From Shigella phage pSf-2, in the sequence record KP085586: a stretch of DNA of 50,109 nt; one strand, written 5' to 3'. The notes under the pieces are model-generated. The model was not told where the DNA came from, searched no databases, and saw only the letters and a list, made by a program, of their open reading frames with translations. A program made the translations under genes and the position numbers. Positions 2,196-48,689 of this stretch are shown here, piece after piece (position 1 is the stretch's first letter; each line of letters starts with the position of its first letter).

Positions 2196-2213
2196 TTTAT
2201 CAATTAGTGCGAT
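2196..2213 (-). promoter_or_regulatory. degenerate copy of 18-bp dyad motif (tttatcaattagtgcgat on + strand)
   Basis: 15/18 match to tttagcaattcgtgctat; tatagt 22 nt downstream on minus strand. Confidence 0.4.
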
Positions 2214-3355
2214 CCTGTCATTTCTGGACGGTAGATGAATCGACCTATCTCACCAAATTGCTTGTCGTAAACGATTACCGCCGCCTGACGATATGAGCGC
2301 CACCCGCCGCGCGCGGCGTATGCATCCTTCGCTCCTAACTGACCGTGAACCTCATCGATACCTAACGAGTGTTCAGTGATTGTCTGATGATGCCAGTGAC
2401 CGCTATGAGTATACACATACTTGCTCTCTCCGAAGTCTGCACGGAAGTCTGCCGCCATCGCTGCAAGTCGCGTGTCTGCCTTTTTCATAGTGTGCCCGTG
2501 AGTGTATCCCAATAAGGTGTTTCCCCATCGAGTCTTATGCAGAATCATAGGGCTAACGTCAACGAATACTCGCGGCTCGTCTTCATAATATGCCGACATT
2601 GCAGCACGTAGCCAAATCATCCCGGCCTGGTCGTGGTTCCCTTCAATAATCTGAACCTCGACTTCTTTGTGTTTCATAAGCATTTTGTCGATAGCGCGAC
2701 GCACAGAACGGATCGCAACATGCACCAATTTTGCGTATCGTGAATCCTGATCCAGAACGTGACCGCTTGCCGGGGTAACAGCATCAAGACCGTCCGAGTG
2801 AAGGAAGTCACCGCCAATTAACAGAACAGCCTTCTCTGCGTTAGGGGCAATATCGATCGCGTAATTGAAGAAGTCGCCAAGCACTTTTTCAGCTACGTCG
2901 GTAGAGTAGTTCTCTCCGCATTCATGCTTGTGAGCAAGCGCACCAATATGAAGATCGAATACCGGATAGAGTGCCAGCTTACCAATCTCTGTCGTAAGCC
3001 CTTGCGAGGTTAGTAGCTCGGTTGGCTTTGCTCGCGGCAGGTCTTCACAGAATGCAATACGCGCCGCTTCCATCATTGCCGCAATCTTCTCACGGTCCTG
3101 ATCGGTTTTTACCCAGCGCACTACCTCGGTCCCATCGCCGCGAATCATCGTCGACGTGCCTTTTACCATGAATCCCTCTGGCACGTTTTTAGCAACATGC
3201 TCGTTACCGTGAAAATGACCTTCTTTTGCCAGCTTTGCATGGCGCGCTTCAACAGTGCGAATGTGCATACCGTATTTTTCCGCGATTTCGCGAAGTGTTA
3301 GGCCGCTCATGCGCTCTTCAATAAGTTGCTCGGTGGTGATTTTAGCTTGTGACAT
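2204..3355 (-). CDS. HTH domain fused to calcineurin-like metallophosphoesterase
   Basis: N-terminal HTH (LTLREIAEKYGMHIRTV); phosphoesterase motifs FDLHIG, GGDFLHSDG, EGNHD, GYTHGH, HSGHWHH. Confidence 0.75.
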   Translation of the reverse strand: MSQAKITTEQLIEERMSGLTLREIAEKYGMHIRTVEARHAKLAKEGHFHGNEHVAKNVPEGFMVKGTSTMIRGDGTEVVRWVKTDQDREKIAAMMEAARIAFCEDLPRAKPTELLTSQGLTTEIGKLALYPVFDLHIGALAHKHECGENYSTDVAEKVLGDFFNYAIDIAPNAEKAVLLIGGDFLHSDGLDAVTPASGHVLDQDSRYAKLVHVAIRSVRRAIDKMLMKHKEVEVQIIEGNHDQAGMIWLRAAMSAYYEDEPRVFVDVSPMILHKTRWGNTLLGYTHGHTMKKADTRLAAMAADFRADFGESKYVYTHSGHWHHQTITEHSLGIDEVHGQLGAKDAYAARGGWRSYRQAAVIVYDKQFGEIGRFIYRPEMTGSH

Positions 3356-3433
3356 ATTTTAATCCTTACATGATAATGAAATACATTACTGAAAATGAAA
3401 TTAGCGGTGTTAATACTACAGCAAAATAAAGTT

Positions 3434-3835
3434 TCATGCCACAGCCTTTAACCAGAATCCTAGATCCGAAGATTTAAACTCAACAAGTTTTCCGTCAACC
3501 TCAAGCATCATACTGTTTCTGCCTGGTGAGTAGTAACCTATATGCAACTCCTGCTCAATGCCGATAGTGCAAAGCACATTAACAAAGTCAGGTGGCAACC
3601 AGTCAGAGAAAGGGATTTGTTTAACCTGCCTTTTCCCGATCCATATTGTCTGGTAGTAATCTGAGTTAATATTTAAGCCTGGAAGGCTTGTTGCTCTTTG
3701 CGTTCTTTCGTTCTCGCTCAATTCTCTTTCCTTCTTCACGATAAAACTCAAGTGACGGGGTTGCTGGCACTCTATGCATTTTTCTCGGCATATCTTCCAT
3801 AAATGAAATCTTTCCGTTTGATATAATGCTAACAT
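3434..3835 (-). CDS. hypothetical protein; likely 3' part of a gene split by a frameshift
   Basis: 133-codon ORF overlapping 3666..3938 by 170 nt in +1 frame; A/T homopolymer near 3779-3783. Confidence 0.3.
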   Translation of the reverse strand: MLALYQTERFHLWKICREKCIECQQPRHLSFIVKKERELSENERTQRATSLPGLNINSDYYQTIWIGKRQVKQIPFSDWLPPDFVNVLCTIGIEQELHIGYYSPGRNSMMLEVDGKLVEFKSSDLGFWLKAVA

Positions 3836-3938
3836 CCTTTATATCGAAATATTTTGCTATTAGTGCTATATCGTCTGATATTCCGCATTCCTTTGCGTGC
3901 TCCCAAACCTCTCGTTTACCTTGTTTTTTTATCAGCAT
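3666..3938 (-). CDS. hypothetical protein; likely 5' part of the same split gene
   Basis: 90-codon ORF; C-terminal half low complexity as expected after a frameshift. Confidence 0.3.
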   Translation of the reverse strand: MLIKKQGKREVWEHAKECGISDDIALIAKYFDIKDVSIISNGKISFMEDMPRKMHRVPATPSLEFYREEGKRIERERKNAKSNKPSRLKY

Positions 3939-4125
3939 TGGTTAGTTTCTCCACGCTTTCAATAAAACACTCAACATCTTTGACTGAGCATAGGTAATAA
4001 GCCATTTTAAGGAAGTTCATAGCAATATCCCAATCAAAGTTACCGCCTTTCTTGTTGGTGATATGAACAGCCATTTTTGCTGACTGTTGAGCGATATTGA
4101 AAAAGTTTGCGTTAATGCGTGACAT
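3916..4125 (-). CDS. hypothetical protein (start moved to internal ATG)
   Basis: aggaa SD 7 nt before ATG 4125; 59 nt downstream of motif 4184..4201. Confidence 0.45.
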   Translation of the reverse strand: MSRINANFFNIAQQSAKMAVHITNKKGGNFDWDIAMNFLKMAYYLCSVKDVECFIESVEKLTNADKKTR

Positions 4126-4183
4126 CTTTTTATTCCTCATCTTGTCTCAATGAAATAACTATACCCGACTTTCGCCGGGTATT

Positions 4184-4201
4184 TTTAGCAATTAGTGCTG
4201 A
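4184..4201 (-). promoter_or_regulatory. 18-bp dyad motif copy (tttagcaattagtgctga on + strand)
   Basis: Overlaps stop of 4192..4443; on minus strand followed after 22 nt by tatagt. Confidence 0.6.
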
Positions 4202-4443
4202 ACGATCGTATCTGCTTTAAGTTCCTCTACGTCTTTCTGGATAATTGAAGGCCAATTCTCGATATGTTCATTTTTTATCTCATCGAAAGACATATCAAGA
4301 GAACTAGTGAAATCCCACAGATCACAACCAATAACATCCTGAGTCAATCCGTTTCGCTCCATAATTTCGCAGCACGTAGCTCGATAAAGTAGCCATAAAC
4401 CTTGATCAGTTAACTTAACAGGAATCATTTTCTCGTTCATCAT
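4192..4443 (-). CDS. hypothetical protein
   Basis: 83-codon ORF, ATGA overlap with upstream methyltransferase gene. Confidence 0.5.
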   Translation of the reverse strand: MMNEKMIPVKLTDQGLWLLYRATCCEIMERNGLTQDVIGCDLWDFTSSLDMSFDEIKNEHIENWPSIIQKDVEELKADTIVQH

Positions 4444-5153: not shown

Positions 5154-5206
5154 TTTTAGTCCTCTCGTTTTGGTGAAATAATAATGCCAGATTCCATTCC
5201 GGCAGT

Positions 5207-5224
5207 TTTAACAAAAAGTGCTAT
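5207..5224 (-). promoter_or_regulatory. 18-bp dyad motif copy (tttaacaaaaagtgctat on + strand)
   Basis: Overlaps TAG stop of 5221..5637; minus strand: 22 nt then cattat, then leader shared with copy at 45967. Confidence 0.65.
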
Positions 5225-5637
5225 TTCATCATTTCGTAAATTGCGATCTTGAATTGCTCAAATCCGTAAGCCACCGCAGAGAATCCACCGCGTTCGCGAA
5301 CCTTACGGAGAAATTCCTTTTGCTTATCGCTGACTGGCGATGCCTTTCCTTTGCCGGACTTATTACCCCGCTTGAGTTCTATTGCTGCAAACGGGTATCG
5401 TGAGTTGACACCAATCAGGATAACGAAGTCTGACACGCCTTTAAGTAATCCGGCTTGCTCATCCCTGAGCGCCGATGTGATTGTTTTTCCACCTTCATTG
5501 ACAGTGTGCCAAAATAGAAGGTGAGGAAAATTGTATTTCAGCCAGGACACGCAATCCACCTGATGAGCATCCTCCTTTCGAGTATCGCTGGGATCTCGCT
5601 CGTAAAACTCTAAATAATCACCTTTGTCTGTAATCAT
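5221..5637 (-). CDS. VRR-NUC domain nuclease
   Basis: C-terminal pattern DFVILIG...AIELKRG...SDKQKEFL typical of VRR-NUC fold. Confidence 0.7.
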   Translation of the reverse strand: MITDKGDYLEFYERDPSDTRKEDAHQVDCVSWLKYNFPHLLFWHTVNEGGKTITSALRDEQAGLLKGVSDFVILIGVNSRYPFAAIELKRGNKSGKGKASPVSDKQKEFLRKVRERGGFSAVAYGFEQFKIAIYEMMK

Positions 5638-7652
5638 TCCGGGATATCCTCCATACCGAAGTCTTTGCGTGAAATAATATCTTCTTTCTTCTGGTTGCGT
5701 CGATGAGTTACGCGCACCGGGTGAGCAATATGATGTGAGTACTGCACGATCTTGATTGCGTTCTTCATTCCGATAAAGTAGCGACGCATTTTAGGATCTG
5801 ACACATGAGGCAATACGCCCTTCGTTTTCCATAGCGTACCGCAAATCTTAGAGTCGGACTCAGGGAAGAATTTTTCATACGCCTTGAACTCATCACCATC
5901 ATCGTTAATCAGCGTGTATTTGTATATCACGCCCTTTTGGTTTTTGGTTAGCGTTACCTCAAAATTCTTGACCTCATACCAGTCATTCTTGGTGTACGCC
6001 TTGCCGGACAATTTCAGGTTAGGATCGACAAGTGACACATCACAGCAACGACAAACTCGGGCGACAACGTCATTCTCGGCACCACATCCTTTAACAAGAA
6101 TTTTCCCGGTTCGCTCATCAACCTGGTCCTCGCAAATCTGAGAAATCCAGAAGTGATCGCATCTCTCACCGTCTATAACGTTAACGCATCGGCGAGCGTA
6201 GAAGCTATTAACGCAACCACACTTAGGACACGTTTTCGGGTCTTTGCCGTTTTCAAAACGCTTCTGGAATTGCGCCTGCTCAAGTATCGGATCGAAATAA
6301 AGCTGACCCAACTCATCCATCGTACCTGCGAAATCCCATACCAGATGGTCCTGCTTAACCATTCCCTCAGCAACCTGCCAAGATTTAAGCAGACGCATAC
6401 CCCTACCCAAAAGTTGAATTAACAGTGTGAGCGACCCTATTTTGCGGAGTATGACACTGAAATCCCAATTTGGAACGTTAACACCAGTAGTGAGCGCCAT
6501 TACCTGAAAGGTGTATTTAATTTTTCCGGCCCTTACATCGTCAAGAATCTTCTTGCGCGCTTTGTTGTCTGTGTCGCCAGTGATGATTGCATAGGTACTT
6601 CCCGGAGGAAGTGCCGCCGCCGCCTCTTTGCAGTGACGCACCCCGGCGCATGTAATCAGTACCGCGTTACGCTCTTCAGCCTTTTTGGCAACCATTTGCA
6701 TGATTCGCTGAGTAAGAGATTTATCATGAAGGATCTCATCTTCCATTGCCTTCATATCTTTCTCTGTAAAGTCCTGTACCCCATCCTCGCTTGACGCCTT
6801 GAATTTATCAAGATCGTAGTGAACTCCGTCCGTCGAACCGAATATAGTCGGCACAACAGAACCGAACTCAATAAGATAATTTGTGTCAATATCAGTCACG
6901 CGCTCACGCCAGAATCCAAGCGCTTTCGGATTCTCTACCAGAATAGGAACTACGCCCCGAAATTCAGATCCAGTCATACCAAATATTCTGAGATCGTGAC
7001 CGTGAACCTTTTTACAGCGCCGCATCATTTCCATGATTACGATCGTGTACTGGCTTCGCTTAGTTCCAAGTAAAGGTTTCCCGTCATTACCAATCAGAGG
7101 AATATCCCCGTCCATAATAACTTTCCCTTTCTCGCCCTTCATCTGCTCCATCGTTTCCTTTCCTTCGATGGCTTGCGCAAGATCTTCCCAATCCACCTGG
7201 TGACATTCGTCGATCCCAATTACATGCGGGACAAAATCAGCCAACTCATTATCGAGGCCATTTGCAACCGTACCCTCAGAGCCAACCACGATCGGAAAAT
7301 AGCAGGACTTAATGCCCAATGAGGCTGAGAATATGGAGTTAGTTACCCCGAAATTGTCAATCTCCTCACTATCCTGATCGACAATCTCACCCTGGCGAGC
7401 CAGAACGAGCATTTTTAATCCCATTTTCTGACACTGCTTTGCAACCATAGCAAAAATGATAGTCTTACCAGCAGATACTGACGCTTTAACAAAGAATGGG
7501 TGCTCGTAATTTGATAGGCGTTTCGCGATCTCGGTATAAGCAACAACCTGGTACGGATAAGGAACAACCTCACCAACAGTAAATCGCTCCTGAGTTCGCT
7601 TTATGTAGTCCTCGCCAAGTAATGCAATCTGCTTTTTAATGTTCATTGTCAC
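5634..7652 (-). CDS. SF2 DEAD/DEAH-type DNA helicase with C-terminal Cys cluster
   Basis: Walker A SAGKTI, motif II GIDECHQ, motif VI-like LLGRGMRL, CPKCGC...C zinc cluster. Confidence 0.75.
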   Translation of the reverse strand: MTMNIKKQIALLGEDYIKRTQERFTVGEVVPYPYQVVAYTEIAKRLSNYEHPFFVKASVSAGKTIIFAMVAKQCQKMGLKMLVLARQGEIVDQDSEEIDNFGVTNSIFSASLGIKSCYFPIVVGSEGTVANGLDNELADFVPHVIGIDECHQVDWEDLAQAIEGKETMEQMKGEKGKVIMDGDIPLIGNDGKPLLGTKRSQYTIVIMEMMRRCKKVHGHDLRIFGMTGSEFRGVVPILVENPKALGFWRERVTDIDTNYLIEFGSVVPTIFGSTDGVHYDLDKFKASSEDGVQDFTEKDMKAMEDEILHDKSLTQRIMQMVAKKAEERNAVLITCAGVRHCKEAAAALPPGSTYAIITGDTDNKARKKILDDVRAGKIKYTFQVMALTTGVNVPNWDFSVILRKIGSLTLLIQLLGRGMRLLKSWQVAEGMVKQDHLVWDFAGTMDELGQLYFDPILEQAQFQKRFENGKDPKTCPKCGCVNSFYARRCVNVIDGERCDHFWISQICEDQVDERTGKILVKGCGAENDVVARVCRCCDVSLVDPNLKLSGKAYTKNDWYEVKNFEVTLTKNQKGVIYKYTLINDDGDEFKAYEKFFPESDSKICGTLWKTKGVLPHVSDPKMRRYFIGMKNAIKIVQYSHHIAHPVRVTHRRNQKKEDIISRKDFGMEDIPE

Positions 7653-7715
7653 GTCTATTAATCCTTTGAATCGTTGTAACGTTTACGCTATAATACACGG
7701 CATACAGTAAACGTT

Positions 7716-7733
7716 TTTAGCAAAAAGTGCTAT
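7716..7733 (-). promoter_or_regulatory. 18-bp dyad motif copy (tttagcaaaaagtgctat on + strand)
   Basis: Minus strand: 22 nt then tattat upstream of helicase start; abuts SD of + gene 7746. Confidence 0.65.
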
Positions 7734-7745
7734 AGGAGAATCAAG

Positions 7746-8198
7746 ATGAGTATTCAACGTATCGCAGAGTCAACTGGTGAAATCGATAAACGTCACATCA
7801 ATGGTAACAACGGAACACGACGCGGTAAAGACAAAAAGCCACGACAGCGCTGCGGCTTCTATATTCATAAAGAAGAAACACGCGCCGGATTGCGAGCGCG
7901 ACTTGATGCGCTTATCGAATATTATGGTGGCCCTGCGGCCTGCGCAAAAGCTCTAAAGGTTAGCAATCAGACGGTGCAAGGCTGGAAAGAACGCAACATG
8001 ATTTCGTGGCAAGGTGCTGAAGCTGCGCATCGTGCTTACCGACGACAGGGGTGTAAAGGATTTCGTGCCGCATGGTTGCGATTCGACCTGAAGTTTGACG
8101 GTAACGGCAAGTGCCTTGAGAAGCGATGCAAGAACAAGAAATTTATGCGCGTCGTGAAGAAGGAAGATATCGGGACGACCAATAGCATTTTTAGTTAA
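7746..8198 (+). CDS. HTH DNA-binding protein (candidate transcription regulator)
   Basis: aggaga SD; Cro/CI-like HTH segment CAKALKVSNQTVQGW; basic protein. Confidence 0.55.
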   Translation: MSIQRIAESTGEIDKRHINGNNGTRRGKDKKPRQRCGFYIHKEETRAGLRARLDALIEYYGGPAACAKALKVSNQTVQGWKERNMISWQGAEAAHRAYRRQGCKGFRAAWLRFDLKFDGNGKCLEKRCKNKKFMRVVKKEDIGTTNSIFS

Positions 8199-8199
8199 A
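8182..8199 (+). promoter_or_regulatory. degenerate copy of 18-bp dyad motif (atagcatttttagttaaa)
   Basis: Overlaps TAA stop of 7746..8198; no -10 at 22 bp. Confidence 0.3.
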
Positions 8200-8204
8200 A
8201 CAAA

Positions 8205-8247
8205 CGACGCGTAGCGGGTTAACATCCTTCTACGCGTTTTTTATTTT
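8205..8247 (+). terminator. Rho-independent terminator
   Basis: Stem gcgtag/ctacgc with long loop, then ttttttatttt. Confidence 0.5.
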
Positions 8248-9223: not shown

Positions 9224-9252
9224 TTGCAAGACTCATGGCGCGATGATAAAAT
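9224..9252 (+). promoter_or_regulatory. sigma70-like promoter for tail-fibre gene (TTGCAA-17-TAAAAT)
   Basis: Near-consensus hexamers with 17-bp spacer, 44 nt before ATG 9296. Confidence 0.5.
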
Positions 9253-9257
9253 CTGTG

Positions 9258-9275
9258 TTTAGCAATTCGTGCTAT
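9258..9275 (-). promoter_or_regulatory. 18-bp dyad motif copy (tttagcaattcgtgctat) in operator-like position
   Basis: Lies 6-23 nt downstream of the -10 above and 20 nt before ATG 9296. Confidence 0.65.
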
Positions 9276-12221: not shown

Positions 12222-12277
12222 CTTAACTTCTCCTGATTGGTGTATGAGGTGCATTATAACACCTCATTAATTATTTG

Positions 12278-12295
12278 TTTAGCTATTTGTGCCGT
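12278..12295 (-). promoter_or_regulatory. degenerate copy of 18-bp dyad motif upstream of TATAAT box for Erf-like gene
   Basis: 14/18 match; minus strand has tataat about 21 nt downstream inside an 8-bp inverted repeat. Confidence 0.3.
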
Positions 12296-18552: not shown

Positions 18553-18598
18553 GATGTTTACCTTTTTGTGCTATTTATCTGTGGACTCATTATACAGG

Positions 18599-24742: not shown

Positions 24743-24760
24743 ATAGCACTTTTTGTTAAA
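24743..24760 (+). promoter_or_regulatory. 18-bp dyad motif copy (atagcactttttgttaaa), opposite orientation to flanking late genes
   Basis: 21 nt upstream of G-like start 24721 on other strand; followed by accaatcaggag leader. Confidence 0.55.
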
Positions 24761-24792
24761 AGCAAAGAGTGCAAAGTTGATACGATGATTTT

Positions 24793-24823
24793 ACAGAAAT
24801 GAAGAAGGGGGCGCAAGCCCCCT
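24793..24823 (-). terminator. terminator-like hairpin after major tail gene
   Basis: aggggg-cgcaag-ccccct hairpin, modest T-rich tract. Confidence 0.35.
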
Positions 24824-27493: not shown

Positions 27494-28453
27494 TTACACG
27501 CCAGTGATTAAGACAATAGTCATCGGGCGATAAATTGTAAGACCAGTACACTTAGAGGTGCAAGGCACTTTAAAGTGCAAGTCTTTCGGTTGTGCTGGCA
27601 GCATGTTAAATGCTTCCGGGATCTCGATGGACATGTTCATCGGATTCTTTTCGTACACCAGTACGCCTTTGGTGCCTGCGCCGTCAATATCCTCAAGCTC
27701 TGCGATAGAGTCGATTTCGATACCTGAGTTCTGAGACTTGAAATAGTCCAGATAAGACATGGTAGTCTCAGGCATACGAATCGCCAGCACCTTACGCATG
27801 GACGGCGGGATCAGAATGTTGGTAGCTCGGTGCTGGCCTCGAGTAATCGTCTCGATGGTTTCGATCGCCTGAGTCAATTCCGCTTCAGCCGTTTCCGGTT
27901 TCTGAGTTGCGCCATCCATCCACTTACCGGAGGTAATTTTGGTGATGTTCGGATGATTGAACACGGACACAATCTTGTGCGGCGCGGAACCTTTGAACAC
28001 CAGGCGGTTAACAAGCTGATCATGAGCCAACTGGCACGCACTTGCCTTACGGGTTGACAGTGGACGACCAGTTGCCTGACCTGCTTTGATTTCGTCGATT
28101 GAGATCAGATACGCGTTACCAAGACGGAACACCTTGCCAAACTCAGAAGTACCCAGGGCGTCAACCAGCGGAAGATCGTCGGTGTAGTCTGCGATAATCT
28201 GAGCCGTACCAACCTTGTCAAAGGTCATGTATTCAAACGTCTTATCAGTCGGAGAAAGATCGGTTGTAACCGGGAATACGCGTAGAGCGGAGCCGACCGG
28301 GTAGTCTTCTTCATAGGACTGGCTTTTAATGCGGTGTAGTTCCTGAGCGGTCCAGATACCCATTGTTGCGGCTGCATCCTGTTTTACGCCAGCCTGGATC
28401 AGATACATTTCAACATTGCTTTTATCTGCTTCATCAAATTTTTTAGTAGTCAT
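27494..28453 (-). CDS. major capsid protein
   Basis: 319 aa, in capsid position downstream of scaffold and decoration-like genes, followed by strong terminator. Confidence 0.75.
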   Translation of the reverse strand: MTTKKFDEADKSNVEMYLIQAGVKQDAAATMGIWTAQELHRIKSQSYEEDYPVGSALRVFPVTTDLSPTDKTFEYMTFDKVGTAQIIADYTDDLPLVDALGTSEFGKVFRLGNAYLISIDEIKAGQATGRPLSTRKASACQLAHDQLVNRLVFKGSAPHKIVSVFNHPNITKITSGKWMDGATQKPETAEAELTQAIETIETITRGQHRATNILIPPSMRKVLAIRMPETTMSYLDYFKSQNSGIEIDSIAELEDIDGAGTKGVLVYEKNPMNMSIEIPEAFNMLPAQPKDLHFKVPCTSKCTGLTIYRPMTIVLITGV

Positions 28454-28472: not shown

Positions 28473-28499
28473 ATAAAAAAGCCGTGATTATGTTCACGA
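28473..28499 (-). terminator. short hairpin plus T-run between promoter-like element and capsid gene
   Basis: cgtga-ttatgt-tcacg then T6 on minus strand. Confidence 0.35.
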
Positions 28500-28507
28500 C
28501 TTCAATA

Positions 28508-28525
28508 ATAGCACTTTTTGTTAAA
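28508..28525 (+). promoter_or_regulatory. 18-bp dyad motif copy (atagcactttttgttaaa) inside a minus-strand TTGACG-16-TATTAT element
   Basis: Motif occupies spacer of sigma70-like hexamers 28527-28532 and 28505-28510. Confidence 0.5.
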
Positions 28526-28544
28526 GCGTCAAAGTGTTTTTATG

Positions 28545-34672: not shown

Positions 34673-35197
34673 TTAAAGCATGTCAAGAATACTGTTTACA
34701 GCCTCTTTCATTGCGTCCTCAGTGGTGGCGACTACTGTCGATGCGGAAGCTGCCGAGTTTTCGATATTGATTGAGGCTGGCTTATCGATTCCGAGATCCT
34801 TACCGATAAAGGAGGCGTTAATAACACCGTTGGCGGCAAGCTGGAATTTTTGCTCATTTATTACCGACTCAACAAACTCCATAACCTCACTGTATTCTTC
34901 CTCTCGCTTCCACTTAATGATTGCGGCCTCGCTTGCACCGATAAATAGTCGGTATCCGGTCCAGGTGAAGACGCGCGGCTTATGAACTAGCGATTCATAA
35001 ACGCCACCCTGAAAGCTGGCTGATTCTGACGCCTTGATTGCGTTGTCCTCGGCCCATTCGAAATACTTCACTGAAAGATCGAATAGTTGCTCTGGCGTCA
35101 TCGCTCTGTTTTTCGCGAGTACAGTGCCGAATTTTTTCTTGTATAGCTCTTTGAAATTACCTCCCTGGACTACGGGAGCGTTCTTAGGTTCACTCAT
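34673..35197 (-). CDS. terminase small subunit candidate (start moved to internal ATG)
   Basis: Upstream of TerL; aaagagga SD before ATG 35197. Confidence 0.5.
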   Translation of the reverse strand: MSEPKNAPVVQGGNFKELYKKKFGTVLAKNRAMTPEQLFDLSVKYFEWAEDNAIKASESASFQGGVYESLVHKPRVFTWTGYRLFIGASEAAIIKWKREEEYSEVMEFVESVINEQKFQLAANGVINASFIGKDLGIDKPASINIENSAASASTVVATTEDAMKEAVNSILDML

Positions 35198-35249
35198 AAA
35201 TAAATCCTCTTTGTTTAACATTTAGTGTTATTTTACCATATTGCAGGCA

Positions 35250-36986: not shown

Positions 36987-37044
36987 TTCGATTTTCTCTC
37001 TTCGTTGTCGATGAGGTAACTATATCAAATCACCCCACCGACGT

Positions 37045-37062
37045 TTTAGCAATTCGTGCTAT
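37045..37062 (-). promoter_or_regulatory. 18-bp dyad motif copy (tttagcaattcgtgctat)
   Basis: Overlaps TAG stop of kinase gene; minus strand: 22 nt then tatagt (37019-37024). Confidence 0.7.
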
Positions 37063-38476: not shown

Positions 38477-38532
38477 GATCGCTTCCTCGTTTGTTGGCGT
38501 AGGGGAATCATAGCGCATTCCCCTTGATAGGT

Positions 38533-38550
38533 TTTAGCAATTCGTGCTAT
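38533..38550 (-). promoter_or_regulatory. 18-bp dyad motif copy (tttagcaattcgtgctat)
   Basis: Minus strand: 22 nt then tatgat inside 8-bp inverted repeat aggggaat/attcccct. Confidence 0.7.
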
Positions 38551-40013: not shown

Positions 40014-40079
40014 AGCTGATTTCTCTGATTGGTTGCCGTGCTTCAATAAGGCCACTATATCAAATGGCCTTGCGGAAGG

Positions 40080-40097
40080 TTTAGCAATTCGTGCTAT
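40080..40097 (-). promoter_or_regulatory. 18-bp dyad motif copy (tttagcaattcgtgctat)
   Basis: Minus strand: 22 nt then tatagt inside inverted repeat aaggcca/tggcctt. Confidence 0.7.
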
Positions 40098-40749: not shown

Positions 40750-40805
40750 AACTCTTTCCTCTTAGTTGTTGGCGTGGGGATTATACCAGTCAGGACAAAT
40801 CCCCT

Positions 40806-40823
40806 TTTAACAATTCGTGCTTA
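40806..40823 (-). promoter_or_regulatory. 18-bp dyad motif copy, variant (tttaacaattcgtgctta)
   Basis: Minus strand: 22 nt then consensus tataat inside inverted repeat ggggatt/aatcccc. Confidence 0.7.
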
Positions 40824-41309: not shown

Positions 41310-41366
41310 GTTTGTATCCTCGTTCGTTGTCGATGGGGTTACTATATCGCAACCCCGATATTGTGT

Positions 41367-41384
41367 TTTAACAAAAAGTGCTAT
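41367..41384 (-). promoter_or_regulatory. 18-bp dyad motif copy (tttaacaaaaagtgctat)
   Basis: Overlaps TAG stop of 41381..41572; minus strand: 22 nt then tatagt. Confidence 0.7.
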
Positions 41385-42322: not shown

Positions 42323-42386
42323 GGTGATTCCTCTGATTGGTATCTCGTTTCGATGGGGTAACTATATCAAGATACCCCGATTCGTT

Positions 42387-42404
42387 TTTAACAATTCGTG
42401 CTAT
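42387..42404 (-). promoter_or_regulatory. 18-bp dyad motif copy (tttaacaattcgtgctat)
   Basis: Overlaps TAG stop of 42401..42871; minus strand: 22 nt then tatagt flanked by ggggta/tacccc. Confidence 0.7.
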
Positions 42405-43068: not shown

Positions 43069-43126
43069 CTTTGTTTCCTCTGTATCGTTTCGATGATAAG
43101 ATAATACCCGATCCGCTAGACCGGGC

Positions 43127-43144
43127 TTTAACAAAAAGTGCTAT
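43127..43144 (-). promoter_or_regulatory. 18-bp dyad motif copy (tttaacaaaaagtgctat)
   Basis: Overlaps TAG stop of 43141..43461; minus strand: 22 nt then tattat. Confidence 0.7.
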
Positions 43145-44047: not shown

Positions 44048-44076
44048 ATTGTGACATCTCGATGTAGAGCTGTCAA
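44048..44076 (-). promoter_or_regulatory. sigma70-like promoter candidate (TTGACA-17-CACAAT) for leftward early operon
   Basis: Consensus -35 with 17-bp spacer, 58 nt upstream of ATG 43989; TGTCA/TGACA inverted repeats nearby. Confidence 0.4.
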
Positions 44077-44129
44077 TGCCTGCGAGCCAATTTTAAGCCG
44101 TGTAACATTTGTCTAGCTGTCTATAGCCA

Positions 44130-44390
44130 CTATAGAAATATATGGCTCTCAAAAAAAGTACTGTATATATAAACACTCAGATAGAAATATGCCAACAGTA
44201 CGCTAGACAATGTAAGACAGCTATACACAACTATTACAATATAATTATCTATATATATAAATAAAAAAAACACTATATATATTATATATATACATATATC
44301 TATATGTATATTGTGAGGCGTCACAGTGTGTATTTTTGTCACAAGTGCGATTCTAGACAAATATTACAGTCGTGACAAGTTAAAGTGTAA
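44130..44390. repeat. AT-rich tract with (TA)n/ATATA runs and TAGACA / GTCACAAG repeats; candidate origin or early control region
   Basis: Long ATATATA-type tracts at 44160-44320; repeated ctagacaa, gtcacaag/gtgacaag words. Confidence 0.45.
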
Positions 44391-44393: not shown

Positions 44394-44411
44394 ATAGCAC
44401 TTTTTGCTAAA
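44394..44411 (+). promoter_or_regulatory. 18-bp dyad motif copy (atagcactttttgctaaa)
   Basis: First rightward copy; no clear -10 at 22 bp. Confidence 0.5.
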
Positions 44412-44598
44412 AATGGAGATGAATGCCAGGCGAACCGGGTAACACCAATTCCTCCCTCTCACAATCATTGCATTCTCAGCAACAAATCAACCAACTGTTG
44501 CACACCATGCAATAATCACGTTTCATCATTCGTAATCAATAACAATCAAGATTATTCCACCTATTCCAGTATTGATTGAATAATGAGCAATTATTGGA

Positions 44599-44616
44599 AT
44601 AGCATTTTTTGCTAAC
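44599..44616 (+). promoter_or_regulatory. 18-bp dyad motif copy, variant (atagcattttttgctaac)
   Basis: tatgat about 23 nt downstream, then caaccaatcaggag leader to ATG 44675. Confidence 0.6.
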
Positions 44617-44674
44617 GACTTAGCAAGGCCGATTGGGTATGATTCATCACATCAACCAATCAGGAGCAATCGAC

Positions 44675-44818: not shown

Positions 44819-45519
44819 AGTTGATTTGGTCGCTATTCGACGGTTCCGGCCTGGCAGGTCATGAACTGGCAAAGCAAGGTCATAAGGTGATGTGCTTCAA
44901 CTTTGACGGGGCAGATCACGGAGATTACGCAAAGTACAATGCCCGGGTAGAGCATCCGAACATTGAGTATGTGAACGTCTTCATTGATGAGAAGTTCGAA
45001 CGTGATGCGATCGCTGGTGTGTATGGCAAACCTGATTTCATCATGGCTTTCCCACCATGCACTGACCTAGCTGTTAGTGGTGCTCGCCATTTTGCCAGCA
45101 AGCGTGAACGTGATCCGTTATTCCATGAGAAGGCTGTTGCCACCGCTCGGATTGCTGCTAATATTGGCGAAGCTATGGGCGTGACGTACATCATTGAGAA
45201 TCCGGTTAGCGTCCTGTCATCTGCCTGGAGAAAACCAGATCACTCCTTTAATCCCTGGGAGTATGGCGGCTATCTTCCTGAGAATGACTCACATCCCTGG
45301 TTCCCGATGTATATTGCGCCGCGCGATGCTTACCCTAAGAAGACGTGTCTTTGGACCTCGGACGATTTTGTCATGCCGGAGAGAAATCCAGTAAGCCTGC
45401 CTGACGGGTACTCTGCACAGCAAAACAAGCTGGGCGGCAAGTCTGCCAAAACTAAGCTGATACGATCCCTGTCGCCGCGTGGATTTTTCAAAGCGATCGC
45501 AAATAGCACTTTTTGTTAA
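44815..45519 (+). CDS. minimal C5-cytosine methyltransferase-like protein
   Basis: Motif I-like LFDGSGLAG, PC motif FPPCTDLAVSG, ENV-like IIENPVS with canonical spacing; only 234 aa; aaggag SD. Confidence 0.5.
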   Translation: MKLIWSLFDGSGLAGHELAKQGHKVMCFNFDGADHGDYAKYNARVEHPNIEYVNVFIDEKFERDAIAGVYGKPDFIMAFPPCTDLAVSGARHFASKRERDPLFHEKAVATARIAANIGEAMGVTYIIENPVSVLSSAWRKPDHSFNPWEYGGYLPENDSHPWFPMYIAPRDAYPKKTCLWTSDDFVMPERNPVSLPDGYSAQQNKLGGKSAKTKLIRSLSPRGFFKAIANSTFC

Positions 45520-45520
45520 A
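45503..45520 (+). promoter_or_regulatory. 18-bp dyad motif copy (atagcactttttgttaaa)
   Basis: Encodes C-terminal ...NSTFC* of upstream gene; 22 nt then cataat. Confidence 0.7.
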
Positions 45521-45579
45521 ACTCGATCGGTGTGATTTGGCATAATTACCTCATCGAAACGAGATTGAGGAAAAACAAA

Positions 45580-45765
45580 ATGGCACGTCGCATCACTAAA
45601 GACCTTAAAGTCCTGAACAAAGAAAACGTAGTTAAAATTCTGGTTATTTGGGGTTACAACGAAGAATCAGCAAAGCATAAGGTAGAAGCGGGTTACGACC
45701 TGGCTGTCAAGGCAATGCCTAACGACGACGCCAAAGGCATTGTAAACTATGTAGCATTCTTTTAA
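45580..45765 (+). CDS. hypothetical small protein (start moved to internal ATG)
   Basis: gagga SD before ATG 45580. Confidence 0.45.
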   Translation: MARRITKDLKVLNKENVVKILVIWGYNEESAKHKVEAGYDLAVKAMPNDDAKGIVNYVAFF

Positions 45766-45780: not shown

Positions 45781-45966
45781 ATGAAAACGAAATTAGTGCA
45801 TAAATCAGAAATCAAGATCGGCGATACTGTGATTCACAACGGAGAGCTTAGAACAGTTGGTAAGGAGTCAATAAGCAGAGATGAATTTATGGGGTTATTG
45901 TTGTTCGGCGACTCCTATCGCCTGGGGTGCAAAATGGTTGAGCTTGTTGAGGAAGTAAAATTCTAA
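45781..45966 (+). CDS. hypothetical small protein
   Basis: 61-codon ORF, weak SD. Confidence 0.4.
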   Translation: MKTKLVHKSEIKIGDTVIHNGELRTVGKESISRDEFMGLLLFGDSYRLGCKMVELVEEVKF

Positions 45967-45984
45967 ATAGCACGAATTGCTAAA
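45967..45984 (+). promoter_or_regulatory. 18-bp dyad motif copy (atagcacgaattgctaaa)
   Basis: Starts right after TAA of upstream gene; 22 nt then cattat; leader shared with copy at 5207. Confidence 0.7.
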
Positions 45985-46048
45985 CATGCCGGAATGGAAT
46001 CTGGCATTATTACTTCATCGAAACGAAACATCAAAACAGGAATCGGAA

Positions 46049-46231
46049 ATGAAAAAGTTAACATCAAACACAAAATATGAAATTATTGACGGTGAAGCTA
46101 TTATTTATGCTCGCGCGAAAGGATCAAATAAACTAACAGCCGCATTCAAATGCCACCCAGCGACAATTGATCTCATCAAAGAGTATGGATTCAAGTCGGC
46201 TATAAGCAAGTCGTTATTATGCAAGGCTTAA
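46049..46231 (+). CDS. hypothetical small protein (start moved to internal ATG)
   Basis: aggaa SD before ATG 46049; track start 45977 lies inside motif. Confidence 0.45.
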   Translation: MKKLTSNTKYEIIDGEAIIYARAKGSNKLTAAFKCHPATIDLIKEYGFKSAISKSLLCKA

Positions 46232-46300
46232 CGCTTTGGGTAAAAATATAAACAATGACACACAATACTATAAGTGGGATCTCGTAAAATATTTATCAAA

Positions 46301-46318
46301 ATAGCACGAATTGCTAAA
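46301..46318 (+). promoter_or_regulatory. 18-bp dyad motif copy (atagcacgaattgctaaa)
   Basis: 22 nt (with hairpin ccccga/tcgggg) then tatagt; caaccaatcaggag leader to ATG 46377. Confidence 0.7.
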
Positions 46319-46376
46319 CGCCCCGAAGGGAATCGGGGTATAGTAAACAACATCAACCAATCAGGAGAATCGCCAG

Positions 46377-46607
46377 ATGGCAATCAAACATCCCGGATTA
46401 AAGAAAGCAATCCAGCGAGCCAATGACGAGGGATTTATTGTATATCGAACACATTACGGTCACATGGGTGGACTTAAAGAGCATCATACAAAGGTTGAGC
46501 TTGTGGACTTATGGGAGGATTACGATACATTCCAGTACATCGCCACGTCTGACGTAGAGGCGCAAGTGAAATACATCAATGACACTATTGATAGCTTCAG
46601 AGGGTAA
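46377..46607 (+). CDS. hypothetical protein
   Basis: 76-codon ORF with aggag SD. Confidence 0.5.
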   Translation: MAIKHPGLKKAIQRANDEGFIVYRTHYGHMGGLKEHHTKVELVDLWEDYDTFQYIATSDVEAQVKYINDTIDSFRG

Positions 46608-46611
46608 TTAT

Positions 46612-46983
46612 ATGTTTAAGCAGTTCACAGATCTGGACTTCTCAGCCAGCACGGCAATCAAGACTGACGAGAAAGAAAGCGTAGCGATCGAGAACATCGC
46701 GCGCAAGATTTACAACAAGCAAGAGAAGGCCGTTAGAGCCGCTCTGAGCGCTTATTACGGTGTAAGTGATGCAATGGAGTGTGTTAGCAGGGTAACGCGC
46801 GTAGTGGACAGTTCTGGCGCGCCTCGTTTCGTAGATGACGATACTGGCGAGACAATCATTCAACTTAACAATCCATCCATGCGCACAGAGTTAGGAAACG
46901 TCGCATTGTGGGGCGTGGCTAACTACTCAATCACCGTCAATTCCTGCATTGCGCACCGTGTTAAGGAGGCATTGTATGAGTGA
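46612..46983 (+). CDS. hypothetical protein (start moved to internal ATG)
   Basis: ATG 46612 five nt after upstream TAA; track start 46579. Confidence 0.5.
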   Translation: MFKQFTDLDFSASTAIKTDEKESVAIENIARKIYNKQEKAVRAALSAYYGVSDAMECVSRVTRVVDSSGAPRFVDDDTGETIIQLNNPSMRTELGNVALWGVANYSITVNSCIAHRVKEALYE

Positions 46984-47176
46984 TAATATTTACCGCGTAG
47001 TGGCGATCTCACGCAAGACGCAAAAGAGCGTAGTTGCCTACATGGGAAATAGCGCCATTGAGGCAACAGACGACTTCGAGCTACTGAAGAATAACGAAGG
47101 ATTTATGAACACGTTCCGCGTTCGACTTGAGCGTCTCGAACCTGTTATAATTGATGAAGCGCGAAAGCTATCCTGA
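46976..47176 (+). CDS. hypothetical small protein (start moved to internal ATG)
   Basis: aaggagg SD before ATG 46976; overlaps upstream TGA. Confidence 0.45.
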   Translation: MSDNIYRVVAISRKTQKSVVAYMGNSAIEATDDFELLKNNEGFMNTFRVRLERLEPVIIDEARKLS

Positions 47177-47192
47177 CTGGTTAGGGGGAATA

Positions 47193-47513
47193 ATGAACCA
47201 CACTTATAAAATCACAACGAAATCACCGAAGATTAACGGAAGCACGGTCGCGGCATTGAATAACGCGGCAGCAATCCACGAAAAAAACATCATGGAGCGC
47301 GTGAAGGCGGCAGTAGGCCGATTCTATGGAATCAACGCTGATATTGCCGACAGCAAGCGACTGTTCAAATACGTGCCAGGTCATCCATATAGCCGGATGA
47401 TCGATATTAAGCATGATAAAGAACTGGTTCGAATCGGATCGCTTAGCATTGACGAGTTCGACCATAGCATTAACCTTGTGACGGCGTATCAAACATGGGA
47501 CGGTAAAAAATGA
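47193..47513 (+). CDS. hypothetical protein (start moved to internal ATG)
   Basis: aggggg SD before ATG 47193. Confidence 0.5.
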   Translation: MNHTYKITTKSPKINGSTVAALNNAAAIHEKNIMERVKAAVGRFYGINADIADSKRLFKYVPGHPYSRMIDIKHDKELVRIGSLSIDEFDHSINLVTAYQTWDGKK

Positions 47514-47653
47514 TTTATATTCACACTTTCTATACTGGCAAATTTAACAGCGTAAAAAATGTTCGCGTTTACGATAGCCACCAAAAAGCAATGATGCAGA
47601 AAGTAGTTCTAGGTGGAACAATCAAAGAGTGTAAAGTAATTTCCGAGTACTGA
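47510..47653 (+). CDS. hypothetical small protein (47 aa, not in ORF track)
   Basis: ATGA overlap with upstream stop; TGA merges into next motif copy. Confidence 0.3.
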   Translation: MIYIHTFYTGKFNSVKNVRVYDSHQKAMMQKVVLGGTIKECKVISEY

Positions 47654-47670
47654 TAGCACTAATTGCTAAA
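47653..47670 (+). promoter_or_regulatory. 18-bp dyad motif copy (atagcactaattgctaaa)
   Basis: -10-like gtatat/tatatt at 22-23 nt; 60 nt upstream of ATG 47731. Confidence 0.6.
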
Positions 47671-47730
47671 GACAATAAATAGGGAGTAAGGTATATTACT
47701 CCAACACCAAACGAAATAAAGGAATTAAAA

Positions 47731-47955
47731 ATGAGTATTAAAGTTGAGAATATCATCAAGCATCTGAACGCGAAAGGACGTGTAGTTATCAAAATGGATA
47801 AGTCTTCCGGTTTTGTTTCAATGACGGTAACTAAGGCTCGGAACGGTAATAACGTTATTGGCAGCACACCAGGATCGCGCTTAGTAAATGCAACAGATGC
47901 GGATGTTCGCGCAACGCTTGAGGCTAACTCGATTTACATTAATTCATGGGGCTAA
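47731..47955 (+). CDS. hypothetical small protein
   Basis: 74-codon ORF with aaggaa SD. Confidence 0.5.
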   Translation: MSIKVENIIKHLNAKGRVVIKMDKSSGFVSMTVTKARNGNNVIGSTPGSRLVNATDADVRATLEANSIYINSWG

Positions 47956-47958
47956 TTA

Positions 47959-48171
47959 ATGGAACAGGATAATTTCTGGACTCGTTATTTTGCCGCGCTC
48001 GATGCCGGGCTTAGTGCGGAATGGTGTATCAAGGTTGCATATAAAGAAATTACGCTTGACGACGCACTAGGGAATATGGATATGGACGCAGAAAGTGAAT
48101 ATAATCCCGACTTCGAGATGCCCGGCGATGATATTGGTGATAATGACGACGACGATTATATTCCCTGGTAA
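47959..48171 (+). CDS. small highly acidic protein (DNA-mimic candidate)
   Basis: C-terminal third about 50 percent Asp/Glu (DFEMPGDDIGDNDDDDYIPW). Confidence 0.45.
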   Translation: MEQDNFWTRYFAALDAGLSAEWCIKVAYKEITLDDALGNMDMDAESEYNPDFEMPGDDIGDNDDDDYIPW

Positions 48172-48189
48172 ATAGCACGATTTGTTAAT
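48172..48189 (+). promoter_or_regulatory. 18-bp dyad motif copy, variant (atagcacgatttgttaat)
   Basis: Starts right after TAA of upstream gene; 22 nt then taaagt; aaccaatcaggag leader. Confidence 0.6.
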
Positions 48190-48251
48190 ATTGCCGTAAG
48201 GTCATTTGATAAAGTGGCCTTATTCAAGATAACCAATCAGGAGTGAACGCA

Positions 48252-48668
48252 ATGAAATCCATCAAACTTAAATGTACTTCCGCAGACAAAATCACAGGAT
48301 TTGAAGTTAACAACCTTTACAAAGGTCGAGAGCGCTACGATGGAACTCGTGAGGTTAAGTTAAAGTGCGGTAAGTATTTAAAACTTGATAAGCATGATGA
48401 ATTACAGATTCACGGATCTGATGAAATCTTCTTCGCAAAATTCACTGAACTTAAAACCAAAACACTCAAGTGTACCGGGCTTGACCATCGCAACACAATG
48501 AAAAAATCATTCAAAGTTGGCAAGCGTTACCAGGTGGAAAGCGGTCGTGCTCTCGGTGGAGTGGCTGGTTACATCTTTGATGAGGACGGTTGCCGCTGGA
48601 CATTATTCCGCGAAGAGGTTGGTTTTAGTATTGCTGACGGCACAACCTTTGAGGCCAAATACTTATAA
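48252..48668 (+). CDS. protein with tandem small Cys-containing repeats (start moved to ATG 48252)
   Basis: aggag SD; track start 48243 is GTG; repeats KLKCTSADKITGFEV / TLKCTGLDHRNTMKKSFKVGKRY resemble those in 38901..39539. Confidence 0.5.
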   Translation: MKSIKLKCTSADKITGFEVNNLYKGRERYDGTREVKLKCGKYLKLDKHDELQIHGSDEIFFAKFTELKTKTLKCTGLDHRNTMKKSFKVGKRYQVESGRALGGVAGYIFDEDGCRWTLFREEVGFSIADGTTFEAKYL

Positions 48669-48671
48669 CCA

Positions 48672-48689
48672 ATAGCACTTTTTGCAAAA
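48672..48689 (+). promoter_or_regulatory. 18-bp dyad motif copy (atagcactttttgcaaaa)
   Basis: 22 nt then tatcat (48710-48715); aaggag SD and ATG 48745 follow. Confidence 0.65.

Follow-up and report, generated by a model that had tools for sequence, protein, structure and literature searches.

T1-like phages carry a repeated word whose function was left open when it was described. The 2024 re-annotation of phage TLS reported a 21-nucleotide (nt) direct repeat, aaATAGCACnnnTTGnTAAAA, which is present in 21 copies and was also noted for T1, Rtp, and Rogue1. The TLS copies follow the direction of transcription, lie ~76 nt ahead of start codons, and were proposed to act as a stoperator, an enhancer site, or an UP element in a genome in which three sigma-70-like promoters only could be found (PMC11447400). 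Here, we describe the same element in a 50,109-nt stretch of DNA from Shigella phage pSf-2 (sequence record KP085586; the whole stretch is referred to as the window), a T1-like phage of the family Drexlerviridae, genus Tunavirus, to which phages IME18 and SA30RD are ~90% identical and with whose helicase that of phage Lg3 is 98.8% identical. The TLS repeat and the present motif share the orientation rule and the distance of ~76 nt to start codons; unlike the present analysis, the TLS study connected the repeat neither with the marbox nor with a -10 element at a fixed distance (PMC11447400). The repeat as an observation is already published, with its function unexplained there, and the link to the marbox of the host is what we add. 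Among open-access papers and preprints, we found no paper linking the marbox to a phage genome, and no transcription start sites or transcriptomes of T1-like phages.

The marbox is the site of the host activators MarA, SoxS, and Rob, and of RamA in Klebsiella and other genera. Its consensus from chromatin immunoprecipitation sequencing is gcactaattgctaaa (Sharma et al., PMC5684230), and a degenerate definition is gcannwwntgnnaaa (PMC12052159). The site is non-palindromic and is read by monomeric activators of the AraC/XylS type through two helix-turn-helix (HTH) motifs (PMC12052159; PMC9178005). A class II marbox has the forward orientation, overlaps the -35 element, and is centered between -36 and -55 (PMC12052159). 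In the cryo-electron microscopy structure of Rob on the micF promoter, the A site is GCAC and the B site is CAAA, which overlaps the -35 element; Rob contacts G at -47 and A at -45 and prevents sigma region 4 from reaching the -35 element (PMC9178005).

The original prediction, made from the letters of the window, listed 24 copies of an 18-nt word at gene junctions, and each of the 24 coordinates does carry one, against ~0.03 expected by chance. The pattern TAGCA-N5-TGCTA occurs exactly 10 times (0.04 expected), and the words ATAGCACGAATTGCTAAA and ATAGCACTTTTTGTTAAA occur 15 and 14 times, respectively, at up to 3 mismatches (0.02 and 0.03 expected). Both words together recover 23 of the 24 sites at this threshold, the copy at 12278 requiring 4 mismatches, and shuffled sequences never approached the observed counts. 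Further weaker copies, absent from the earlier list, were found at 3852, 18557, and 35214, all on the minus strand. Location at a gene junction holds for every copy: the upstream stop codon falls within the motif in 12 copies (TAG at positions 2–4; TAA at positions 1–3, 8–10, or 15–17) and at most 5 nt upstream of it in 5 others. The C-terminal peptides NSTFC-stop and NSTNC-stop, which had been ascribed to many of these overlaps, are real and are limited to 2–3 genes. The orientation of the copies, which was said to follow gene polarity, does so in 20 copies; those at 9258, 24743, and 28508 are antisense, and that at 44394 has no nearby downstream gene.

Positions 4–18 of the motif are identical to gcactaattgctaaa or deviate from it at 1–3 central bases. 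The exact 15-mer is present at two sites (47653 and 4184), and of the main variants, GCACGAATTGCTAAA is one base off and GCACTTTTTGTTAAA is three central bases off. The degenerate form gcannwwntgnnaaa matches 20 sites in the window with 0 mismatches, against 0.94 expected, and all 20 are copies of the repeat. The classical 19-nt marbox is reportedly AYnGCACnnWnnRYYAAAY, a form attributed to Martin et al. in 1999; in this form, it has 21 sites at up to 1 mismatch (1.17 expected). The 12278 copy matches the 19-nt form with 0 mismatches; the 4 differences that separate it from the word of the original prediction are confined to degenerate marbox positions. Across 57 modules from 5 genomes, the bases A1 T2 A3 G4 C5 A6 C7, T11 T12 G13, T15, and A16 A17 A18 are near-invariant, and the variable positions are 8–10 (T/G, W, W), 14 (C or T), 19 (A or C), and 20. 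The variation at positions 8, 9, 10, 14, and 19–20 falls on the n, W, and Y positions of the marbox, and the motif is an asymmetric 15–20-bp box of the gcannwwntgnnaaa / AYnGCACnnWnnRYYAAAYn type.

Each box is the first part of a cassette, in which the 18-nt word is followed by 20 unconserved nt, a -10-like hexamer, a C-A step, a leader, a Shine-Dalgarno sequence, and the start codon. The -10-like hexamer lies 19–21 nt past the AAA in 21 of the 24 copies and exactly 20 nt past it in 17 (P of ~1e-22); measured from the 20-bp box, the gap to the -10 element is 18 bp in 17 copies, 17 bp in 1, and 19 bp in 2–3. The known class II members likewise keep the sigma-70 -10 element at a set distance, the gap from the 20-bp box being 18 bp in micF, 18 bp in sodA, and 17 bp in fumC. 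The micF promoter of E. coli K-12 reads AcaGCACTGAATGTCAAAac, 20 nt past the AAA, and TAGAAT, which is the phage gap. The phage hexamers (TATAGT, TATAAT, CATTAT, TATTAT, and similar) always have A2 and T6 and are often preceded by TG. A conserved C-A seven bases past the hexamer is the predicted +1; counted from it, the phage box is centered at about -40, a class II position, and is oriented as in micF, with G4 at -47 and A6 at -45, the two bases with which Rob is in contact at micF. The start codon lies 70–84 nt from the first base of the word and is preceded by a Shine-Dalgarno sequence. TTGCTA was rejected as a canonical sigma-70 -35 element: the distance from TTGYTA to the -10 element is 22 bp, which is ~5 bp beyond the canonical spacer of 16–18 bp, and a consensus scan detects none of the modules.

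Compared with the class II archetype micF, and likewise with sodA, fumC, lpxC P2, and lpxL P1, the phage modules have (i) the same asymmetric box with GCAC distal and AAA proximal; (ii) the same 17–19 bp from the 20-bp box to the -10 element; and (iii) no usable -35 element. The two groups differ in that host marboxes are degenerate and single, whereas this virulent phage has ~20 near-consensus boxes in 50 kb, and in that the phage modules have a hairpin in the spacer or around the -10 element and a box abutting the previous stop codon. In the host fumA–fumC intergenic region, an upstream intrinsic terminator is followed 2 nt later by the fumC marbox and then by the -10 element, which is the layout of the phage cassette. 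The phage leaders are conserved from +1 to about +30 in most modules (e.g., 37012-36986 and 45553-45580), with CATCGAAACGA or AACCAATCAGGAG before the start codon, and could act as an initial transcribed sequence, as a translation enhancer, or in processing. The same leaders are found in cassettes of the podovirus Skarpretter, the T4-like phage KP27, and a Webervirus.

We consider it probable, though well short of certain, that the repeats are promoter cassettes dependent on the host activators MarA, SoxS, or Rob. The best-supported assignment from these positions is that most copies (~20) are class II, that one is class I, and that a few are reversed at places where repression would be expected. 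In the ~20 putative class II, activator-dependent sigma-70 promoters, GCAC would occupy about -47 to -44, and the TTGYTAAA half would lie over the place of the -35 element; the 20-bp box would be followed by the 18-bp free spacer, a good and often TG-extended -10 element, and the C-A start. A host activator would bind the box and replace the contact between sigma region 4 and the -35 element, and the bound activator would touch sigma region 4 and the C-terminal domain of the RNA polymerase alpha subunit (alpha-CTD) and thereby recruit host RNA polymerase. Recruitment in this mode was shown for Rob at micF (PMC9178005).

The cassettes also contain hairpins. A GC-rich hairpin with z < -2 is present in 19 of the 24 modules (mean z = -3.0), either lying in the spacer and ending at the -10 element or enclosing the -10 element in its loop. 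It can occupy the spacer because the class II layout leaves these 18 bp unconstrained in sequence. The stem sequences differ among modules (e.g., GGGGTT/AACCCC, GGGGTA/TACCCC, AAGGCCA/TGGCCTT, and GGAGTAA/TTACTCC). Between close orthologues, substitutions in stems appear several-fold rarer than unpaired ones, by a rough estimate with two mismatched pairings set aside, and a strict covariation test, restricted to close orthologues, revealed no double compensatory changes. Most stem changes retain a G-U pair on the sense strand, which points to a role in the sense RNA that is read through from the upstream gene. The 8182 hairpin is a full intrinsic terminator, a few others carry T-rich tails, and the GenBank record of SA30RD labels equivalent hairpins "rho-independent terminator"; no Rfam family matched anywhere in the window. 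In the read-through RNA, the hairpin would most likely attenuate, terminate, or stabilize the upstream transcript, and this action together with the promoter would make each junction a compact terminator-plus-promoter cassette. We rejected N-utilization-like antitermination sites, composed of the word and the hairpin, since ~20 copies at a fixed distance from a -10 element argue otherwise.

A similar layout is known from the promoter-early stem-loops (PeSLs) of T4-like phages (PMC2839356, PMC4122927). Both PeSLs and the present cassettes place a promoter and a stem-loop in the intergenic space, in the order upstream stop, promoter, stem-loop between or over the promoter boxes, Shine-Dalgarno sequence, and start codon, and both accumulate beside small variable genes, as candidate linkers through which modules could be shuffled. 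PeSLs, however, contain a near-consensus, activator-free sigma-70 promoter, TTGACA-N17-TATAAT, with the -35 and -10 elements ~17 bp apart; a scan for such promoters finds 0 of the phage modules, which have a marbox instead of a -35 element at 16–18 bp. The MotA boxes of T4 middle promoters and the stoperators of mycobacteriophage L5 are likewise oriented words that recur across a phage genome in place of promoter elements or beside them. The MotA box lies closer to the -10 element and needs the phage proteins MotA and AsiA, and stoperators need a repressor in a temperate phage; proteins of both types are presumably absent from pSf-2.

The distribution of the cassette bears on whether a host or a phage factor reads the box. 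Searches with E. coli MarA (tblastn and phmmer) revealed no MarA homologue in the window, T1, a Webervirus, a Braunvirinae phage, or Skarpretter, and a MarA-like protein encoded by the phage was therefore rejected as the reader on the basis of the window and these four related phages. The exact pattern occurs 20 times in T1, 14 times in the Klebsiella Webervirus cp2, 13 times in a Braunvirinae phage, and 8 times in Skarpretter. Skarpretter is a P22-like podovirus that has only replication, recombination, and methylase genes in common with pSf-2, and 7 of its 8 boxes are followed at the class II distance by a -10-like hexamer. The T4-like Klebsiella phage KP27 has a complete cassette, of which the part from TTGCTAAA to the -10 element is annotated as "putative middle promoter"; a related Enterobacter phage has two cassettes, and the carriers include T4-like Slopekvirus/Pseudotevenvirus phages. 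Public annotations of the cassette are inconsistent, with terminators in SA30RD and a putative middle promoter in KP27. In a Vibrio phage whose replication genes are related, the cassette is absent; the pattern matches there only twice, which is at chance level, and no -10 element follows either match. The word is found in 1173 phage records, nearly all from Klebsiella, Escherichia, Shigella, Salmonella, Enterobacter, Citrobacter, Cronobacter, and Yersinia hosts, and the common denominator of the carriers is, as judged from these sequence records, the host. The regulon had been called phage-specific, which does not agree with a word that is the host marbox consensus, nor with a cassette that also occurs in a podovirus, in T4-like phages, and in the myovirus DIBBI. 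The small genes adjoining the cassettes at 324-602 in KP27 and 396-632 in cp2 are 66% identical homologues, which suggests that cassette-flanked genes have been exchanged between phage families and hints that the cassettes double as exchange points.

The original prediction interpreted the word as a dyad and therefore as the signature of a dimeric DNA-binding protein, for which it named two proteins of the phage. True dyads are found in 10 of the 24 copies, which are perfect TAGCA-N5-TGCTA words; the dyad is broken in the other 14. The symmetry is lost at positions 1, 7, 11, and 17, and position 14 varies between C and T opposite an invariant partner, G4. The left half, ATAGCAC, hardly varies, and the word has a direction with respect to the -10 hexamer downstream of it; the equally conserved two-fold half-sites of a dimeric HTH operator are lacking. 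An asymmetric motif that has one orientation and a fixed distance to the -10 element and that fits the non-palindromic marbox does not carry the signature of a dimer site. The exact fit to a non-palindromic host site makes the half-dyad a by-product; on the conservation pattern, the dyad is best regarded as incidental, with halves that are unequally conserved and one working orientation. The dyad center at about -42 is a position used by dimeric class II activators, and the 150-residue protein of gene 7746..8198, which has a weak Cro-like HTH match, belongs to a "transcriptional regulator" family, and is flanked by two copies, would be one candidate for a phage dimeric regulator that activates or represses a phage-specific regulon. 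We regard such a regulator as an improbable reader of the repeat. The Cro-like match is below threshold, and no solved homologue was found beyond it. The family has 823 records that are essentially those of Drexlerviridae, a distribution which is that of the phage family and is uninformative as to binding. No homologue is detectable in Skarpretter despite its seven complete cassettes, and KP27 also has a cassette, as do T4-like phages in which the protein is missing, so that a cognate phage protein does not accompany the site wherever it is used; early promoters would, moreover, require a protein that has not yet been made. We rejected the 7746..8198 protein as the cognate binder; it may well regulate something, and it is not needed to explain the repeat. 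The second protein named as an HTH binder, that of gene 2204..3355, is a DNA repair exonuclease (phrog_704, E 1e-156) and has no HTH match in Pfam. What is retained of the proposed regulon is thus a putative protein-binding promoter element in front of ~20 transcription units at a frequency far above chance, and what is lost is the dimer, the specificity to the phage, and the named binders.

Other explanations were also weighed. Host RNA polymerase alone could read the element, alpha-CTD or sigma region 4 contacting it in the manner of an UP element or of a displaced -35 element, which would boost the extended -10 elements in the absence of any activator. A/T-rich blocks in phase at about -52, -42, and -33, the many TG-extended -10 elements, growth of the phage in unstressed cells, and the UP elements proposed by the TLS authors (PMC11447400) speak for this possibility, which we nevertheless hold to be unlikely: an UP element is A/T-rich, has no specific G or C, and lies at about -40 to -60, and the bases that are invariant here are G4 C5 A6 C7 and T12 G13 (GCAC and TTG), not A-tracts, with TTGYTA 22 bp from the -10 element; the base-for-base and spacing coincidence with the marbox would be left without a reason. 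It is very unlikely that the word is essentially a recombination linker of the PeSL kind, its uniformity arising from recombination rather than from protein binding and its cassettes swapping within and between phages. PeSLs provide an experimentally supported precedent for such a linker (PMC2839356), the cassettes flank small open reading frames (ORFs) in the variable arms, stop codons fall inside the word, and the cassette-side genes of KP27 and the Klebsiella T1-like phage are the 66% identical ones mentioned above; recombination by itself does not explain why exactly the marbox-informative bases and the distance to the -10 element are kept across subfamilies with ~50–60% protein identity. 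A linker role is compatible, as a secondary one, with the marbox reading. There is slightly less again to recommend a word that acts at the RNA level, as a small UAGCA..UGYUA hairpin or as a linear site that a nuclease or RNA-binding protein would recognize at the upstream gene's 3' end. The word is transcribed in upstream mRNAs, C or T at position 14 preserves a G-C or G-U pair, and the neighboring larger hairpins show substitutions that tolerate G-U on the sense strand; a 5-bp A/U-rich stem is, however, very weak, the window contains no Rfam family, and fixed spacing to a DNA -10 element and a conserved start site favor a role in DNA. Least probable of those considered is a site for host Lrp. 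Its arms fit the consensus yAGhAwATTwTdCTr, and TAGCACTTTTTGCTA matches 13 of 15 positions by our own count, but the center misfits in the GAA variants, half of the copies have T where the consensus requires C, and Lrp sites are degenerate and symmetric, whereas the phage motif has a direction and hardly varies beyond the Lrp core. A sigma-54 promoter has -24/-12 elements with the spacing TGGCAC-N5-TTGC. The motif, TAGCAC-N3-TTGC, is two bases too short for this and has no GG, and none of the consensuses of sigma-54, IHF, Fis, CRP/FNR, ArgR, PurR, DnaA, ArcA, and NtrC fits both sequence and spacing.

Several points weigh against a marbox-dependent promoter cassette. Many transcription-factor consensuses were compared before the marbox was reached, although this burden is small relative to a fit of ~22 bits with exact spacing. 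Host marboxes vary more than the phage boxes, in which ATA at positions 1–3 and TT at positions 11–12 are near-invariant; this uniformity could reflect an extra constraint or recombinational homogenization. MarA and SoxS are low in unstressed cells. The main doubt comes from the very rapid growth of T1-like phages in laboratory cultures that are not stressed, Rob being reported as largely sequestered in such cells (PMC5684230). The good, often extended -10 elements may fire without an activator, and binding, activation, and the +1 positions are predictions. The host-restricted distribution is blurred by records from Pseudomonas, Campylobacter, and Xanthomonas: the Xanthomonas phage DIBBI has two complete cassettes (e.g., 151-200), PsgS01F, a T1-like phage recorded on Pseudomonas syringae, has 12 boxes, and "Campylobacter" phage records also carry the word. 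These records may in some cases have mis-assigned hosts or be T1-like contaminants, or the cassette may work outside Enterobacterales.

Several copies depart from the class II layout or have a second relation to a promoter (Table 1). On the minus strand, the 44394 copy reads TTTAGCAAAAAGTGCTAT, 15 nt, and TTGTCA-17-TAGAAT, and the E. coli mar promoter reads TTTAGCAAAACGTGGCAT, 16 nt, and TTGACT-17-TATTAT. The class I marbox geometry has been defined (PMC12052159), and the 44394 copy has a predicted class I placement, reversed and centered near -61/-62, as at the mar promoter; it would thus act as the class I marbox of a canonical promoter. It shares with marRAB 16 of 18 bases and the reversed orientation, and it differs by one base in the spacing to the canonical -35 element (15 vs. 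16 nt); the phage has one such copy, with predicted activity. Three reversed copies overlap canonical sigma-70 promoters, and an activator bound to a box that overlaps a core promoter would be expected to hinder that promoter, so that the same protein would act negatively there. The strong leftward promoter overlapped by the 28508 copy precedes the gene of a 319-residue protein (27494..28453) at the position of the T1 major head protein. Directly after this promoter and ahead of the Shine-Dalgarno sequence (28478-28532, minus strand), a terminator-like hairpin with a T-run is located at 28503..28478; it may belong to the upstream gene or be a leader attenuator, a promoter that fires into a terminator being odd. 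The 7716 marbox, besides its predicted role at the helicase gene, lies at about +15 to +32 of the opposing regulator promoter TTGAAT-17-TATAAT. That promoter faces the helicase module, and their -10 elements overlap; boxes lie at both ends of the regulator gene 7746..8198 (plus strand), the first within its 5' leader and the second over its stop codon. The TGaTACGAT downstream of the 24743 copy may be an antisense promoter with an antisense transcript.

The stretch at 44048-44378 (minus strand) contains three tandem leftward canonical promoters, TTGTCA-17-TAGAAT, TATACA-18-TATAAT, and TTGACA-17-CACAAT with TG. They sit in a 640-bp non-coding stretch that separates the divergent early arms, in an arrangement reminiscent of the tandem early promoters at the T7 end, and are likely activator-independent entry points.

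Table 1. Predicted promoter modules, marbox copies, and canonical promoters in the window; the span of a module runs from the marbox to the predicted +1.
Feature	Coordinates	Strand	Box or promoter	-10 element	Remarks
Class II-type module	2163..2213	-	ATCGCACTAATTGATAAA	TATAGT 2170-2175	spacer hairpin; stop of 2204..3355 inside motif
Module	4151..4201	-	GCACTAATTGCTAAA, exact consensus	TATAGT 4158-4163	spacer hairpin
Module upstream of Dam methylase gene	5174..5224	-		extended TGgCATTAT, hexamer 5181-5186	spacer hairpin
Module of helicase gene 5634..7652	7683..7733	-		TATTAT 7690-7695	
Canonical sigma-70-like promoter of HTH regulator gene 7746..8198	7666..7694	+	TTGAAT-17-TATAAT		faces the 7716 module
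Module with degenerate marbox	8182..8232	+	ATAGCATTTTTAGTTAAA	-10-like TAACAT	overlaps stop of 7746..8198; upstream of primase gene; -10-like hexamer in loop of true terminator hairpin ACGCGTAG..CTACGCGT with T-run
Reversed marbox without own -10	9256..9275	-			at about +1..+18 of rightward tail-fibre promoter TTGCAA-17-TAAAAT, 9224..9252
Divergent copy	12246..12295	-	ACGGCACAAATAGCTAAAC	TATAAT 12253-12258	-10 within hairpin loop
Marbox antisense to tail genes	24743..24793	+		TGaTACGAT, 24781-24786	class II distance; no hairpin
Reversed marbox	28508..28527	+			fills spacer and first half of -10 of leftward promoter TTGACG-16-TGcTATTAT, 28532..28505
Module	37012..37062	-		TGaTATAGT 37019-37024	-10 in loop of 15-bp hairpin
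Module	38500..38550	-		TATGAT 38507-38512	hairpin GGGGAAT/ATTCCCC around -10
Module	40047..40097	-		TGaTATAGT 40054-40059	hairpin AAGGCCA/TGGCCTT around -10
Module	40773..40823	-	TAAGCACGAATTGTTAAA	TGgTATAAT 40780-40785	hairpin around -10
Module	41334..41384	-		TATAGT 41341-41346	hairpin GGGGTT/AACCCC around -10
Module	42354..42404	-		TGaTATAGT 42361-42366	hairpin GGGGTA/TACCCC around -10
Module	43094..43144	-		TATTAT 43101-43106	spacer hairpin with T-rich tail, terminator-like
Marbox without own -10	44394..44413	+			reversed; centered at about -61 of leftward canonical promoter
Canonical sigma-70-like promoter paired with 44394 marbox	44350..44378	-	TTGTCA-17-TAGAAT		
Further canonical leftward promoters	44310..44281 and 44076..44048	-			
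First module of rightward arm	44599..44650	+	ATAGCATTTTTTGCTAAC, weaker marbox	TATGAT 44638-44643	gap 21
Module over stop of Dcm-like methylase gene	45503..45553	+		TGgCATAAT 45541-45546	gene ends in ...ANSTFC-stop
Module	45967..46017	+		TGgCATTAT 46005-46010	spacer hairpin, terminator-like
Module	46301..46351	+		TATAGT 46339-46344	spacer hairpin CCCCGA/TCGGGG
Module	47653..47704	+	GCACTAATTGCTAAA, exact consensus	TATATT 47692-47697	gap 21; -10 in hairpin loop
Module	48172..48222	+	ATAGCACGATTTGTTAAT	TGaTAAAGT 48210-48215	hairpin around -10
Module	48672..48722	+	ATAGCACTTTTTGCAAAA	TATCAT 48710-48715	-10 in hairpin loop; upstream of 456-residue reading frame from 48742 (T1 ST9 position, annotated DNA helicase)
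Extra weak copy	3852..3869	-	ATAGCACTAATAGCAAAA	TGtTAGCAT	class II distance; inside overlapping small ORFs
Extra weak copy	18557..18574	-	ATAGCACAAAAAGGTAAA		directly upstream of start of 1149-residue tail gene; no -10 at class II distance
Extra weak copy	35214..35231	-	ATAACACTAAATGTTAAA		upstream of 34673..35221 (T1 small terminase subunit position); no -10 at class II distance

A more far-reaching proposal, which we find doubtful although conceivable, is that the host activator family serves as the developmental clock of a virulent phage family through activation, repression at reversed boxes, release, and coupling to stress. Under such a clock, ~20 promoters of the early and middle phases would be turned on by MarA, SoxS, or Rob bound at class II and class I boxes; at reversed boxes, which lie within the strong canonical promoters of the capsid, tail-fibre, and HTH regulator genes or just past them, the same protein would keep transcription down. 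Release would come from titration of the activator on replicating phage DNA, or alternatively could come from decay of unstable MarA and SoxS after host shut-off. The growth of the phage would then be coupled to the antibiotic, oxidative, or bile stress state of the host; TolC, which the relative TLS uses as its receptor, is among the efflux components induced in that state. Hairpins that present the -10 element in a single-stranded loop might, in addition, make promoter opening easier.

To our knowledge, T1-like phages have neither an RNA polymerase nor a sigma factor of their own. How transcription is programmed in these phages has been an open question since the T1 genome paper, and conventional scans find almost no promoters. 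The marbox offers a concrete and cheaply testable answer, namely that MarA, SoxS, Rob, and RamA of the host are the activators for which the family's main promoter class is made. If the activators are dispensable, the finding shrinks to a well-conserved, already published repeat. If the answer holds, the T1-like phages would be an unusual case of virulent phages that depend on a host stress-response transcription factor, and infection efficiency would be tied to the mar/sox/rob and ramA multidrug-resistance state of Escherichia, Klebsiella, and Salmonella, which would be relevant to phage therapy combined with antibiotics. The cassettes would also supply compact, insulated, activator-dependent promoters, and their presence in T1-like, P22-like, and T4-like phages would make them a cross-family example of mobile promoter cassettes.

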